A stretch of 64,000 nucleotides of DNA from Gemmatimonadales bacterium (GCA_035553475.1 DATNDQ010000054.1:6478-70477), one strand, 5' to 3'. Counted from the stretch's first letter, positions 50,383-53,474 are shown. A program made the numbers and translations. The notes: generated from the sequence alone by a model not told the origin.

Positions 50383-51546
50383 TCACCCCCGCACGGTCTC
50401 CGCGAGCGCCTTGAGCGCCTGGTCGAGCTGATCGTCGGTGACGTACGGCGCGGGGCCCAGGCGCAGGATGTCGTGCCGGGCGTCCACATAAATGCCCTTG
50501 GCCCGAAGGGCCTTCGCAAGATCCGTCGCGGAGGGCGTCCGCAAGGCGAGGAATCCCGCGATGCCGTCGAGTCCATGAACGACGCGCGTAATGACCTTGG
50601 GGTCGAGCGCCAGCTCGTCGAAGCCGTGCGCGAGGCGGCTGATCTGCCGCTTGTTGAGCTCGCGCAGCCGCTCCGGCGTCAGCTGCTGGTCGCTGAAGAA
50701 CCGGAGCACCTCGGCGGCGCGGTAATGACTCGTCGGATCGTAGGTCGAGCCCGCGAAGCGCGCCGGACCGCTGCCGTATTGCACCTTGCCGGTGGCTTTG
50801 GATTCGAGGTGCTCGAACTCGCTATACCACCCGGTGACCACCGGTCGCATGTCGGTATCGGAGGGGAACCGCAGAAAGCAGTTGCCTTCGCCCATCTGAC
50901 AGTACTTGTAGCCGCCCCCGAGGATGTACGCGCTGGTCAGCCCGAGGTTCGGAATCGGGAACGGGATGACGTTGACGGCGTGATACGCGTCGATCAGGCA
51001 CTCCACGCCGGCGCCGCGGCAGGCCGCCGCGATGCTCCCGAGACCCGGCACGATTTCGGCGGTCTCGAAGAGCACCGCGGAAAGCAGCACCGCGGCCGTG
51101 CCGGCCGTGATCTCCTTACGCACCCGCTCCGCCAGGCTCGCCACGGGATGGGCGGGGACCCGCACGATGGCGACGCCTTCCTCTCCCAGGCGATCGAGCT
51201 GCCGCCGAAGCGAATGGAATTCGCCGTCCGTGGTGACGAGCCGTCGTTTCGACTTCAGGGGAAGCCCGGAGAGGAACCGAACGAGCAGTTCGTGGGTCGA
51301 GGCGCCGAGGGCGATCTGGTCCGCTTCGTCGTGCAGGAGGCGCGCGAAGCCGCGGCGGACCGCGCCGGCCATCGCGAACGCCCGTTCCCATTTGTCGTCC
51401 ACCAGCTCGGCGGCGTCGATCCAGGCACGCGACTGGCCTTCGAAGCCGTGGTCCGGCCACGCCTGGTGTGAGTGCCCGGTGAGGAGCACGCGTTCCGTGA
51501 CGCGGAACCGCGTGTAATGGCGGGTGAGCGATTTCGGGTCGATCAC
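50383..51546 (-). CDS. kynU: kynureninase-like PLP-dependent enzyme (aminotransferase class V fold)
   Basis: This is the C-terminal 387 aa of ORF 50383..51726. Motifs: LLTGHSHQAWPD, DAYHAVNVIPF, GGGYKYCQMGEGNCFL (PLP-Lys region) and RLGPAPYVTDDQL. The GTG at 51546 overlaps the TDO TGA, so the two genes are translationally coupled. Confidence 0.7.
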   Translation of the reverse strand: MIDPKSLTRHYTRFRVTERVLLTGHSHQAWPDHGFEGQSRAWIDAAELVDDKWERAFAMAGAVRRGFARLLHDEADQIALGASTHELLVRFLSGLPLKSKRRLVTTDGEFHSLRRQLDRLGEEGVAIVRVPAHPVASLAERVRKEITAGTAAVLLSAVLFETAEIVPGLGSIAAACRGAGVECLIDAYHAVNVIPFPIPNLGLTSAYILGGGYKYCQMGEGNCFLRFPSDTDMRPVVTGWYSEFEHLESKATGKVQYGSGPARFAGSTYDPTSHYRAAEVLRFFSDQQLTPERLRELNKRQISRLAHGFDELALDPKVITRVVHGLDGIAGFLALRTPSATDLAKALRAKGIYVDARHDILRLGPAPYVTDDQLDQALKALAETVRG

Positions 51547-52346
51547 AGCTCGGTGCGAATTTCCCAGAGGTCGGGGAAGGCGGGCCGGTTCAGCGTCGTC
51601 GCCAGGTATTCGGCGCCCGCCGAGCCTCCCGTACCGCGGCGGGTGCCGATGGTGCGCTGGACCATCTTTACGTGCCGGTAGCGCCACTCCTGGAGACCCT
51701 CGTCGAGGTCCACCATGCGCTCGCACAGCGAGGCGAGCCCGGAGTCTTTCCGGTAGACCCGGATCAGGACGTCCTGTACAGCTGCGGTTGGTTCGATCGC
51801 AGCGGTGAAGACCCGGCGCTCGGGGACCTGGTGTCCGTTCCGGTTGAGGCAGGCGAGAAAGGCATCCCAGAGCGTGGGATCATGTATCCGTTGCTCGACG
51901 GCCTTTCGCGCCGCACTTCCGGATGGGTAACGGTCGAGAGACTTGGGATTCTTGTTGCCGAGGACGCACTCGAGCTCGCGGAACTGGTGCGACTGGAAGC
52001 CGCTCCCGGACTCCAGACGGTCCCGGAACGACAGGAACTCGAGTGGCGTCATGGTTTCGAGGATGTCGATCTGGGCGACCAGGACCTTCAGGATGGTGAG
52101 GATCCGCTTGAAGGTGTGTCCGGCGCGGGCAAGGTCACTCTCCCGGAGGAGCTTCTGGAGGTAGTCGAGCTCGTGGAGGAGTTCCTTGAACCAGAGCTCG
52201 TAGACCTGATGGATCACGATGAAGAGCATCTCATCATGCTCCGGCCCCTCGGAAAGAGGCTTCTGGAGCGCGAGCAGCTCATCCAGTTTCAGGTAGCTCG
52301 AGTACGTGACTGCCATCCGGGGATTCCGCGTGGGAGATGTGCCCAC
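51543..52346 (-). CDS. kynA: tryptophan 2,3-dioxygenase
   Basis: The motifs YSSYLKLDELLALQKPLSEGPEHDEMLFIVIHQVYELWFKELLHEL, SGFQSHQFRELE and EWRYRHVKMVQRTIGTRRGTGGSAGAEYL are hallmark TDO motifs. The start is either the GTG at 52346 or the ATG at 52317. Confidence 0.9.
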   Translation of the reverse strand: MGTSPTRNPRMAVTYSSYLKLDELLALQKPLSEGPEHDEMLFIVIHQVYELWFKELLHELDYLQKLLRESDLARAGHTFKRILTILKVLVAQIDILETMTPLEFLSFRDRLESGSGFQSHQFRELECVLGNKNPKSLDRYPSGSAARKAVEQRIHDPTLWDAFLACLNRNGHQVPERRVFTAAIEPTAAVQDVLIRVYRKDSGLASLCERMVDLDEGLQEWRYRHVKMVQRTIGTRRGTGGSAGAEYLATTLNRPAFPDLWEIRTEL

Positions 52347-52391
52347 AAACTAGGGAGCACTTCACCCGTAAGCGATAGCCAACTAGTTTGT
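52345..52391. promoter_or_regulatory. 9-bp inverted repeat ACAAACTAG-N29-CTAGTTTGT at the kynA 5' end
   Basis: ACAAACTAG (52345-52353) and CTAGTTTGT (52383-52391) are perfect reverse complements. The repeat straddles the region immediately upstream of, or overlapping, the candidate kynA start codons. It could be an operator or a 5'-UTR hairpin. Confidence 0.3.
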
Positions 52392-52410
52392 AGGCGGCTA
52401 GCGACCAGGC

Positions 52411-52434
52411 AGACGGCTAGACGTCCAGACGGCT
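52411..52434. repeat. distal degenerate 8-mer array A (AGACGGCT AGACGTCC AGACGGCT)
   Basis: Three contiguous 8-mers of the form AGACGNCN. The block begins 72 nt upstream of the proximal array. A near-identical block lies at 52660-52683. Confidence 0.7.
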
Positions 52435-52482
52435 AGCGGTGGTGAGTGTTCAGGATAGAGGACTACCCGAAGGGGCGGTCCT

Positions 52483-52514
52483 AGACGTCTAGACGTCTGT
52501 CCGTCTAGACGTCT
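52483..52514. repeat. proximal tandem 8-mer array A: AGACGTCT AGACGTCT GTCCGTCT AGACGTCT
   Basis: Four head-to-tail 8-mers, three of them the perfect palindrome AGACGTCT. The array ends 9 nt before the tRNA-Ser(GGA) 5' end. Confidence 0.9.
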
Positions 52515-52523
52515 GGTATTTTG

Positions 52524-52610
52524 GGACGGGTGGCCGAGTGGCTTATGGCACACGCCTGGAAAGCGTGTAAACGGGAAACCGTTTCGTGGGTTCGAATCCC
52601 ACCCTGTCCG
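52524..52610 (+). tRNA. tRNA-Ser (anticodon GGA)
   Basis: Manual cloverleaf: acceptor GGACGGG/CCTGTCC (one G-U pair), D stem GCC/GGC, anticodon stem CACGC/GCGTG with loop CTGGAAA. The long variable arm is AAACGG-GAAA-CCGTTT, the T arm GTGGG-TTCGAAT-CCCAC, and the discriminator G. CCA is not encoded. Length 87 nt. Confidence 0.9.
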
Positions 52611-52659
52611 TACTGACATGGAAGTGGGACGGAGACAGCGAGAACCAAGACGGTCAGGC

Positions 52660-52683
52660 AGACGGCTAGACGCCCAGACGACC
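52660..52683. repeat. distal degenerate 8-mer array B (AGACGGCT AGACGCCC AGACGACC)
   Basis: Paralogous to 52411-52434. The shared context is CAGGCAGACGGCTAGACG(T/C)CCAGACG. Confidence 0.7.
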
Positions 52684-52740
52684 AGTGGGTCCTAGGCGGC
52701 AGAGTTACAGGAAGTCATTCTTGGGTGTTTCGTTTTTTCT

Positions 52741-52772
52741 AGCCGTCTGAACGTCTAGACGTCTAGACGTCT
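52741..52772. repeat. proximal tandem 8-mer array B: AGCCGTCT GAACGTCT AGACGTCT AGACGTCT
   Basis: Four head-to-tail 8-mers ending 8 nt before the tRNA-Ser(CGA) 5' end. The last 21 nt (GTCTAGACGTCTAGACGTCTGGTA context) match array A. Confidence 0.9.
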
Positions 52773-52780
52773 GGTAGTTA

Positions 52781-52867
52781 GGACAGGTGCCCGAGTGGCT
52801 GAAGGGGCCGGTCTCGAAAACCGGTAAGCCGGCAACGGTTTCGTGGGTTCGAATCCCACCCTGTCCG
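52781..52867 (+). tRNA. tRNA-Ser (anticodon CGA)
   Basis: Manual cloverleaf: acceptor GGACAGG/CCTGTCC, D stem CCC/GGG, anticodon stem CCGGT/ACCGG with loop CTCGAAA. A long variable arm is present, the T arm is GTGGG-TTCGAAT-CCCAC and the discriminator is G. Length 87 nt. The 3' third is identical to the tRNA at 52524. Confidence 0.9.
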
Positions 52868-52916
52868 TCCGCAGTTCGAGCCGTAGCTTAGGGGCCGTCC
52901 CTCCCGGGAGGTTCTG

Positions 52917-53474
52917 GTGGTCGGCATCGCGGCGTTGTGGCTCCCTATTCTGTTGTCAGCGGTCCTCGTTTTCATCGTCAGCTCCATCATCCACATGATG
53001 TCGCCGTGGCACAAGAACGACTACCCGTTGCTCGCCAATCAGGATCGGGTGATGGACGCCCTGCGGCCGCTGAACATCCCACCGGGGGATTATTTCATCC
53101 CGCGTCCGAAGGACCGGGCCGAGATGCGCGACCCGGCGTTCGTCGAGAAGACCAAACGGGGTCCGGTCGTGGTGTTTACCGTATTTCCCTCCGCGATGAA
53201 CATGACGAAGAATCTGATCGGCTGGTTCGTGTACCTCCTCGTCGTCGGGCTCTTCGCGGCCTACGTCGCCGGGCGGGCGTTACCGGCCGGGTCACCGTAC
53301 CTCTCGGTCTTCCGCTTCGTGGGCGTGACGGCGTTCCTCGCGTACACGCTGGCGCTGTGGCAGATGACGATCTGGTACAACCGGGCGCTGATGACGTCGA
53401 TCAAGATCACCGTGGACGGCCTCATCTACGGGCTCCTGACTGCCGGAATGTTCGGCTGGCTCTGGCCCAAGTGA
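52917..53474 (+). CDS. hypothetical integral membrane protein (about 4 TM)
   Basis: The RBS GGGAGG lies 5 nt before the GTG at 52917. The 185-aa ORF has clear hydrophobic helices ([76 protein letters not shown]). No family was recognised. Confidence 0.6.

Follow-up and report, generated by a model that had tools for sequence, protein, structure and literature searches.

Why should two serine tRNA genes of a Gemmatimonadales bacterium each be preceded by a tandem array of an 8-mer that reads like the textbook operator of the methionine repressor MetJ? Operators of this repressor belong to Enterobacterales and other Gammaproteobacteria, whereas the Gemmatimonadales represent a soil phylum with very little experimental biology, in which, to our knowledge, almost no regulation has been studied. 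The window considered here is the whole stretch of DNA that was analysed (64,000 nucleotides), and all coordinates are counted from its first letter.

The first-pass annotation of this DNA had reported four 8-mers ending 9 nt before tRNA-Ser(GGA) and four more ending 8 nt before tRNA-Ser(CGA), and both the letters and the positions were reproduced in our analysis. The first array (52483-52514) reads AGACGTCT AGACGTCT GTCCGTCT AGACGTCT and is separated from tRNA-Ser(GGA) by GGTATTTTG (9 nt); the second (52741-52772) reads AGCCGTCT GAACGTCT AGACGTCT AGACGTCT and is separated from tRNA-Ser(CGA) by GGTAGTTA (8 nt). The claimed likeness to the met-box consensus, AGACGTCT, also held when the units were scored one by one, with 8, 8, 5 and 8 of the 8 positions agreeing in the first array and 7, 6, 8 and 8 in the second. 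When the 16-mer dimer was searched for with up to three mismatches, the 64-kb window yielded 9 matches against 0.18 expected (none of 100 shuffles reached 9), all of which are confined to 52411-52772. Similarly, CTAGACGTCTAG with up to two mismatches was found 11 times in the window (1.06 expected). The tetranucleotide CTAG is scarce in this DNA (20 sites observed, 68 expected, a more than threefold depletion), and 13 of the 20 sites fall in 52350-52766. The 8-mer arrays are not chance events.

Two extra arrays of period 8, overlooked in the first-pass annotation, were identified about 70 nt upstream of the proximal ones. The distal array preceding tRNA-Ser(GGA) (52411-52434) reads AGACGGCT AGACGTCC AGACGGCT, and its counterpart preceding tRNA-Ser(CGA) (52648-52683) reads AGACGGTC..AGACGGCT AGACGCCC AGACGACC. 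Each distal array forms, with its proximal array, the arms of an inverted-repeat element of 114-123 nt; the window contains two such elements, one in the 5' leader of tRNA-Ser(GGA) and the other in the spacer between the two tRNA genes.

Both elements and both tRNA genes lie on the plus strand. The distal (5') arm of element 1 (52405-52436) is composed of CCAGGC, the three units AGACGGCT AGACGTCC AGACGGCT and a final AG, and it pairs with the proximal (3') arm (52481-52516), i.e. the first array with flanking CT and GG. Between them lies a variable core (52437-52480), which opens with CGGTGGTGAG and later contains a small hairpin (GGAC-UA-CCC-GAAG-GGG-CG-GUCC). The gene for tRNA-Ser(GGA), in which CCA is not encoded, follows at 52524-52610 (ARAGORN; Rfam RF00005, 56.4 bits). 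Element 2 occupies the inter-tRNA spacer (52654-52776); its distal arm spans approximately 52654-52685, with a further degenerate unit at 52648-52655, its core carries a T-run (52731-52739), and its proximal arm (52739-52774) is the second array. The gene for tRNA-Ser(CGA) is located at 52781-52867 (ARAGORN; Rfam RF00005, 57.5 bits). On the minus strand, divergently oriented, is kynA, encoding tryptophan 2,3-dioxygenase (51543-52316; Pfam PF03301, E = 1e-63), whose closest homologues are named Gemmatimonadales; the neighbourhood also includes a kynureninase-like gene, tadA and clpB. In the region 52250-52950 only the tRNAs exceeded the Rfam threshold, and the arrays matched no family. At the array loci of Gemmatimonadales, Rfam recognised tRNAs and one TPP riboswitch, and nothing else.

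To place the arrays relative to a promoter, about 15 distinct syntenic loci were compared, which were obtained by a metagenome scan with the anticodon arm of tRNA-Ser(GGA) and by look-ups of kynA homologues (their flanking genes are 73-84% identical as DNA, and their KynA proteins 79-93% identical in amino acids). A block of the form CACTTCAC(C/G)-N17-TAnnnT is conserved among the compared loci, with a diverged copy in L244. In the window this is a predicted sigma-70-like promoter of the tRNA-Ser unit (52361-52389, plus strand), defined by conservation among orthologues and not by a mapped start: a -35 hexamer TTCACC (52361-52366), a 17-nt spacer and a -10 hexamer TAGTTT (52384-52389), which would place the start at about 52396. 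A simple promoter scan made no call at the block, because the -10 hexamer fits just three of the six E. coli consensus positions. The distance from the block to position +1 of the tRNA is 52 nt in L167, where no array intervenes, 73-99 nt in five loci with short arrays (L162, L239, L197, L198 and L212), about 165 nt in the window, L019, L210, L236 and L242, and 201 nt in L122, which carries a 35-bp duplication of the distal arm. Since the promoter-like block sits upstream of the distal arm and at a variable distance from the tRNA, it is probably the tRNA-Ser promoter, and the arrays would be parts of the transcribed leader and spacer. The first-pass annotation had stated that the arrays overlap either the core promoter or the leader; the position of the predicted promoter decides for the leader. 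The block could also serve the divergent kynA, which has a -10-like TAGTTT of its own on the minus strand (52352-52347).

The same annotation had proposed, as one of two readings, that a MetJ/Arc/CopG-like repressor binds the arrays and controls tRNA-Ser expression. This reading is not supported: the arrays are found downstream of the promoter-like block and not over it, the orthologues retain the period-8 phasing and the complementarity of the arms while losing the met-box letters, and in related genomes arrays abut stop codons, convergent genes and unrelated genes. A search for MetJ by tblastn, which covered the window and the Gemmatimonadales loci L001-L235, gave no match with an E-value below 1; as a positive control, the same search detected metJ beside four proteobacterial matches of the 16-mer. 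Genuine MetJ operators do resemble the window arrays in their tandem head-to-tail 8-bp units, in the identical AGACGTCT, in the number of units (2-5 per array) and in CTAG at the junctions. In contrast to met boxes, the arrays described here are situated downstream of the inferred promoter or after stop codons, flank tRNA genes and unrelated genes rather than met genes, and occur as inverted pairs with covarying variable positions; moreover, close relatives have AGGCGCCT or AGACGCAC in place of this unit, and no metJ was seen with them. The likeness to the met box is probably that of a palindromic 8-mer in tandem, and not one of shared regulation.

Period-8 arrays precede both tRNA-Ser genes in all syntenic loci, with the exception of L167, whose leader has no array. 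The type of the unit varies between loci: the window has AGACGTCT, whereas L212, L239 and L162 have AGGCGCCT, and L198 has GGCGTCT. Seven orthologous spacers carry a type in which the non-palindromic AGACGCAC of the 5' arm stands opposite GTGCGTCT of the 3' arm. A lack of conservation at orthologous tRNA-Ser loci had been named in advance as an argument against a specific regulatory role; what we found is that the arrays themselves are kept (L167 leader excepted), and that the sequence of their units changes.

The complementarity of the arms was examined in an alignment of 15 elements with an arm helix of 17 pairs. Standard pairs fill 95.9% of the cells, compared with 90.4% after shuffling, and the covariation score is 0.151, compared with 0.074; neither value was reached in any of 500 shuffles, although these figures are to be taken as support and not as probabilities, given that the aligned sequences are related. 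Changes on both sides of a pair were counted in 13 cells (4.8 expected), and controls in which the arms were slid against each other showed 28-41% pairing only. Three pair columns display several Watson-Crick types; pair 37/115 is seen as GC, CG and UA, and pair 29/123 as UA, CG and GC. In eight elements pair 23/129, at the end of the stem, is fixed as a U-G wobble (CTAG opposite CTGG), which is one hint of pairing at the RNA level.

Computed folds of the individual sequences agree with this pattern. The window leader folds with its distal arm against its proximal arm (-56.2 kcal/mol, z = -3.8), and the deviant proximal unit GTCCGTCT is complementary to AGACGG of the distal arm. In the window spacer (z = -2.0) CAGACGGCUAG pairs with CUAGCCGUCUG, and the spacers of the orthologues L197, L162 and L210 gave z values of about -3 to -6.3. 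The second reading of the first-pass annotation, a hairpin in the leader next to the RNase P cleavage site, is therefore borne out in its outline, with covariation behind the pairing, but the predicted fold joins the proximal arm to the distal arm and not the proximal array to itself. A hairpin at the DNA level, or plain inverted-repeat symmetry, fits the data equally well as RNA pairing. The sense strand folds better than the antisense strand in 12 of 16 tRNA-Ser leaders and spacers (these being related sequences), the 36 other arrays are divided 18 to 18, and among the mismatches in the spacer stems G-U and A-C are about equally common.

The elements are not restricted to the tRNA-Ser locus. 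Those of the alignment (99-123 nt), which include both elements of the window and 13 others, were drawn from at least five kinds of Gemmatimonadales locus (tRNA-Ser leaders, tRNA-Ser spacers, a tRNA-Pro spacer, DNA preceding a DEAD-box helicase gene, and the mtnA/ech intergenic region) and can be aligned as one family. The common layout comprises, on the 5' side, (Y)CAGGC, about three AGACGNCN units and AGCGG(G)T, then a variable core, often with a T-run, and, on the 3' side, three or four NNNCGTCT units ending in CTGGTA. In both copies of the window the core contains a small hairpin, and CTGGTA ends 5-6 nt before the tRNA. The inner hairpin of the core is retained with different letters (CCC/GGG in the window, CCCCC/GGGGG in L019). 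A comparison of four species (the window, L019, L122 and L210) showed 97% identity in the arms, compared with 71% in the core and 73-84% in the flanking genes. This excess of identity suggests that the arms are under some selection or homogenisation. An nhmmer profile built from the core only retrieved just the training loci and their orthologues, plus L086 at E = 0.05. A viral origin of the elements was also considered, and was rejected since an exact 20-mer had 0 matches in viral contigs.

In total, at least about 35 loci of Gemmatimonadales or other Gemmatimonadota, several of them from the same metagenome-assembled genome (MAG), carry arrays of 2-7 CTAGACGT units. Approximately 50 arrays in about 35 Gemmatimonadales loci are intergenic according to ORF and GC3-based calls, with one doubtful ORF (L074). 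Arrays end 5-9 nt before genes of tRNA-Ser, -His, -Pro and -Arg and begin 0-5 nt past tRNA 3' ends, and tRNA-His, -Pro and -Arg genes are flanked on both sides; one ends 9 nt before the TPP riboswitch of thiC, and several are followed by start codons at 7-12 nt. At least nine arrays provide the TAG stop codon of the upstream gene (e.g. groEL), and some lie between convergent genes. The flanking genes are varied (topA, rplK, PPDK, DEAD-box helicase, argJ, mtnA and others), mtnA being the only methionine-related one. These stop-codon, convergent and functionally diverse contexts are at odds with an operator that acts at the promoters of a coherent regulon.

The density of the family was assessed in 350 kb of DNA sampled independently of the arrays (the window and twenty kynA-anchored loci). 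Dimers of four unit types, with up to two mismatches, were found there exclusively in the tRNA-Ser leader or spacer, which indicates that the family is low-copy. Each genome may hold from a few copies up to a few tens of them; single MAGs contain at least four to five loci with the exact 16-mer (e.g. L036, L052, L067, L091 and L236 in DATEGY01). Within these searches the repeat family is low-copy and found only in Gemmatimonadales. The first-pass annotation had reasoned that a generic repeat at hundreds of unrelated intergenic sites would speak against a specific role: the spread over unrelated loci was indeed observed, whereas the hundreds were not.

Taken together, these observations lead us to propose that the arrays are the paired arms of a low-copy hairpin repeat of Gemmatimonadales, lodged in the tRNA-Ser precursor, where the hairpins would act as structural punctuation. 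We assign this reading a probability of about one half. Transcription would begin at the conserved block, and, because this start lies upstream of the distal arm, both tRNA-Ser species would be made as a single precursor. The arms would fold into long stems within the precursor. RNase III, or another nuclease specific for double strands, may cut these stems, which could also halt exonucleases or reduce read-through. The tRNAs would then be freed by RNase P and 3' processing. Processing or insulation of the pre-tRNA thus appears to be the most likely function.

In its general architecture the element is a REP/BIME-like or MITE-like structured repeat, built from phased octamers and tied to tRNA genes. 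With the REP/BIME sequences of Enterobacteria and pseudomonads it shares the character of a lineage-specific imperfect intergenic palindrome, often placed past stop codons or between convergent genes, probably transcribed, arranged in inverted pairs with a linker, and possibly terminator-like or stabilising. It differs from them in having arms of tandem 8-nt units, a CTAG foot (GTAG in REP), an apparently low copy number (beyond the tRNA-Ser locus, the 350 kb contained none), a strong association with tRNA genes, and no linked RAYT transposase. Likewise, the resemblance to MITEs such as Correia, ERIC and RUP concerns the size (about 100-125 bp), the terminal inverted repeats around a variable core, the copies at unrelated loci, and the capacity to be co-transcribed into long stems that RNase III could cut; unlike these, the present elements are few, are conserved at orthologous sites across species, and have no target-site duplication or parent transposon that we could find.

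These parallels raise the question of whether the elements have any function in tRNA expression at all. They might be a selfish or mutational by-product, either a mobile repeat of the MITE or REP/BIME kind or a slippage-prone palindromic microsatellite, in which the identity of the arms is kept by template switching or gene conversion and not by selection. The copies scattered over the tRNA-Ser, tRNA-Pro, DEAD-box helicase and mtnA/ech loci are consistent with this, as are the unit counts per array (from 2 to 7) and the variation in presence and size among the orthologues exemplified by the L167 leader and by the duplication in L122. The spacer element of the window, moreover, resembles the leader element of the same window, while the close relative L236 has the AGACGCAC type in this spacer. 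We nevertheless consider a functionless by-product unlikely, since arrays have been kept before both tRNA-Ser genes in all sampled relatives other than L167 (leader), down to 79% KynA identity, and since the arms are far more conserved than the adjacent coding DNA. The low copy number and the missing viral matches also argue against it, and neither direct repeats (target-site duplications) at the ends of the elements nor a transposase or RAYT gene beside the examined copies was seen.

Alternatively, the arrays might act as DNA, with one AGACG/CGTCT unit in every 8 bp recognised by a sequence-specific protein, which would tune the tRNA genes and a few others by forming a roadblock on the early transcribed region or by looping the arms together. 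An RHH protein (of the omega, ParG or MetJ type) is a candidate for this reader, as is some different oligomerising factor. The strict 8-bp phasing and the invariant pentamer are what such binding would produce, and the near-identity of the arms relative to the core, together with the low copy number, point in the same direction. In L212 and L239 the type of the unit has been switched together in the leader and the spacer, which suggests that a reader acts in trans or that the element has been replaced repeatedly. In addition, the leaders of L198 and L197 contain NNNCG(T/C)CT direct repeats with no obvious complementary arm, an arrangement which, in the case of L198, favours binding over pairing. 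On the other hand, covariation between the arms is not expected for units that are bound independently, there is no promoter to be controlled where arrays follow stop codons or separate convergent genes, and the flanking genes do not form a coherent functional set.

Precedents for such binding were found in our own searches. The locus L072 contains a plasmid-like parA and a gene for a 103-aa protein with three flanking arrays of (A/T)GACGTCT-like units, a layout typical of type Ib partition sites, and in other bacteria the same 16-mer is part of true MetJ boxes next to metJ. The arrays of the omega repressor (7-bp heptads) and of ParG (ACTC boxes every 8 bp) are comparable in their short phased units, both direct and inverted, asymmetric, and numbering 2-10 per array; the AGACGTCT-like units of the par-like locus L072 are laid out in this manner. 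Those arrays, however, are located at the promoters or centromeres of their own plasmid operons, and covariation between distant arms is not one of their features. The small protein of L072 had no match in Pfam or among PDB sequences, and to call it an RHH protein is therefore a guess prompted by the order of the genes; the searched Gemmatimonadales loci yielded no MetJ homologue. On balance, a DNA binding array seems to us an improbable explanation of the tRNA-Ser elements.

A third possibility is that the proximal arm and its U-rich tail constitute an intrinsic terminator or attenuator in front of tRNA-Ser(GGA), with the distal arm as the alternative pairing partner that would determine what share of transcription extends into the tRNA. 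A scan called 52481-52516 followed by TATTTTG terminator-like (15 pairs, 6-nt loop), TTTG occurs 3-8 nt after the array in 21 of 126 flanks (as against 1.3% of background 16-mers), and several of the arrays with this tail come after stop codons. The U-tail is nonetheless unconserved at orthologous tRNA-Ser(GGA) genes (CAGTCT in L197, ACTATT in L198, none in L127 and L183) and is missing before the tRNA-His, -Pro and -Arg genes. An efficient terminator before what is possibly the only tRNA-Ser(GGA) gene would be harmful, and there is no clear antiterminator, because the distal/proximal pairing and that of the proximal arm alone both end just before the same U-tract. Attenuation is, in our judgement, very unlikely.

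Two promoter models for the arrays were also discarded. A Bacteroidetes-type promoter, in which the end of the array and TTTG would form the -7 element (TAnnTTTG), had 0 matches in the whole window, and this is thus not a general promoter motif here. The array as its own promoter (TAGACG-N18-TAGnnT) fits only arrays of at least three units, with three independent leaderless-looking cases, and a discriminator would not fit between the array and a tRNA that begins 5-9 nt further on.

Hairpin punctuation of the tRNA-Ser precursor, the reading we prefer, does not account for everything. Neither the strictness of the 8-nt phasing, nor the invariance of the AGACG/CGTCT core, nor the near-perfect conservation of the arms is explained by a stem alone, and it is the phasing, the core and the concerted change of unit type which keep a sequence-specific reader in play. 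A factor of this kind might recognise phased AGACG/CGTCT units, whether the DNA is double-stranded or the stem is folded, with a specificity that co-evolves with the unit type (AGACGTCT, AGGCGCCT or AGACGCAC), and might coordinate the maturation or the output of tRNA genes and of a few highly expressed genes (DEAD-box helicase, topA, the rplK operon). We regard this as quite unlikely; if true, it would amount to a tRNA-centred control system with a met-box-like grammar. Should the arms serve as signals for processing or for binding of a factor, they would give direct access to the study of pre-tRNA maturation or of gene control in this phylum. The literature searched on these sequences and on promoters or repeats of Gemmatimonadetes contained no description of the arrays, and, considering this together with the Rfam results, the repeat family is probably undescribed.

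The locus is also a cautionary case, as the same textbook operator grammar has at least three unrelated uses in public genomes, namely as MetJ boxes beside metJ, as an element in the promoter of a methyltransferase gene that has been transferred widely, and as the hairpin arms of Gemmatimonadales. When one genome per species was considered, the exact 16-mer AGACGTCTAGACGTCT was present at no fewer than 115 loci. In at least 40 of them, distributed over many phyla, it is followed, 30-60 nt downstream, by a conserved N6/N4 DNA methyltransferase gene; in many cases it is placed between TTGACA and a TATTCT-like -10 hexamer, and it looks like a promoter/operator of a mobile restriction-modification system. 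At least four proteobacterial loci (L088, L090, L094 and L104) have a metJ homologue 100-500 bp from the 16-mer, and these four are genuine met boxes. The Gemmatimonadales or Gemmatimonadota loci with arrays described above (at least about 35) and the par-like locus L072 also belong to this list. The remaining loci among the matches listed are mostly from Proteobacteria, including Dyella and other Xanthomonadales-like taxa.

The exact 16-mer AGACGTCTAGACGTCT, made up of two tandem met-box-like 8-mers, was found by the one-genome-per-species scan in several very different genetic contexts. Four of these loci represent genuine met boxes (L088:1883-2626, L090:5612-6186, L094:3187-3605 and L104:927-1269), in which 100-500 bp separate the 16-mer from a metJ homologue whose product shares 55-79% identity with E. 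coli MetJ. The MAGs concerned are assigned to Lysobacterales, Rhodanobacteraceae and unclassified Proteobacteria, and MetJ-type control therefore reaches Xanthomonadales-like lineages.

Another context, represented by at least 40 loci among the matches listed, is the DNA upstream of a conserved gene for a DNA methyltransferase (PF01555, approx. 385 aa), at a distance of 30-60 nt, as in L008:1700-2910; other examples include L005, L009-L011, L014, L018, L021, L023 and L025. The 16-mer is placed in many of them between TTGACA and a TATTCT-like -10 sequence, and the host taxa comprise Nitrospira, Pseudomonadales, Planctomycetota, Chloroflexota, Acidobacteriota and others. The methyltransferase gene of L008 is followed by a convergent gene encoding a 202-aa protein, for which a Pfam search gave no match. 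The loci have the appearance of a restriction-modification system that is mobile and carries GACGTC and TCTAGA sites in its promoter.

The composite element (distal arm, core and proximal arm) was also identified upstream of a DEAD-box helicase gene (L041:600-950 and L032:1000-1340), where it is followed by approx. 200 nt of conserved non-coding sequence and a third array, which stops exactly at an AGGAG Shine-Dalgarno-like motif located 5-6 nt from the ATG. This stretch is possibly a long structured 5' UTR similar to those of cold-shock genes.

In the tRNA-Ser leader, the distal arm is tandemly duplicated at L122:3023-3092 (35 bp, GGCTAGCGATCAGGCAGACGGCTAGACGTCCAGAC...) and the same duplication is present in L243, whereas L242 has a single copy, although the kynA-encoded protein is identical; the arms therefore alter by duplication of whole blocks. 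Comparison of L019:1701-1840 with window positions 52524-52900 revealed that L019 lacks both the spacer and tRNA-Ser(CGA), and that its tRNA-Ser(GGA) is followed by the sequence found 3' of tRNA-Ser(CGA) in the window. Because the 3' halves of the two tRNA-Ser genes are identical, this loss is likely to have resulted from a recombinational deletion between them.

Upstream of the tRNA-Ser unit, the region shared with the divergent kynA gene (window 52342-52394) contains two back-to-back CTAGTTTGT(A/G)GG motifs, one on the minus strand (52353-52342) and the other on the plus strand (52383-52394), which provide the -10-like TAGTTT boxes of kynA and the tRNA unit, respectively. The spacer common to both motifs, GCGATAGCC, is kept in most orthologs and may be a regulator site for kynA. 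The majority of the metagenome matches to the tRNA-Ser(GGA) anticodon arm (L116-L235) appear actinobacterial by sequence (e.g. L121, L137 and L153). In these loci a conserved ...GGCTGGCTAGACTGCCCGGC immediately 5' of tRNA-Ser(GGA) forms a TAGACT -10-like box, 7 nt from the 5' end of the mature tRNA, which implies very short tRNA leaders.

The tetranucleotide CTAG is strongly avoided across the 64-kb window (20 observed versus 68 expected), but is the tetranucleotide on which the repeat elements are based, and a hot spot lies at 52350-52766. An array of at least three CTAGACGT units contains a TAG stop codon in each of the six reading frames, and the TAG within the array serves as the stop codon of nine or more genes in related loci.

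A plasmid-like cassette (L072:140-1180), from a MAG labelled Gemmatimonadales, encodes a ParA-type ATPase together with a small protein of 103 aa (no match in Pfam or PDB), and adjoins genes for a MazF toxin and its antitoxin. It is flanked by three arrays of (A/T)GACGTCT-like units, one of which falls within the N-terminal coding region of the 103-aa protein's gene, a layout that matches type Ib partition centromeres.
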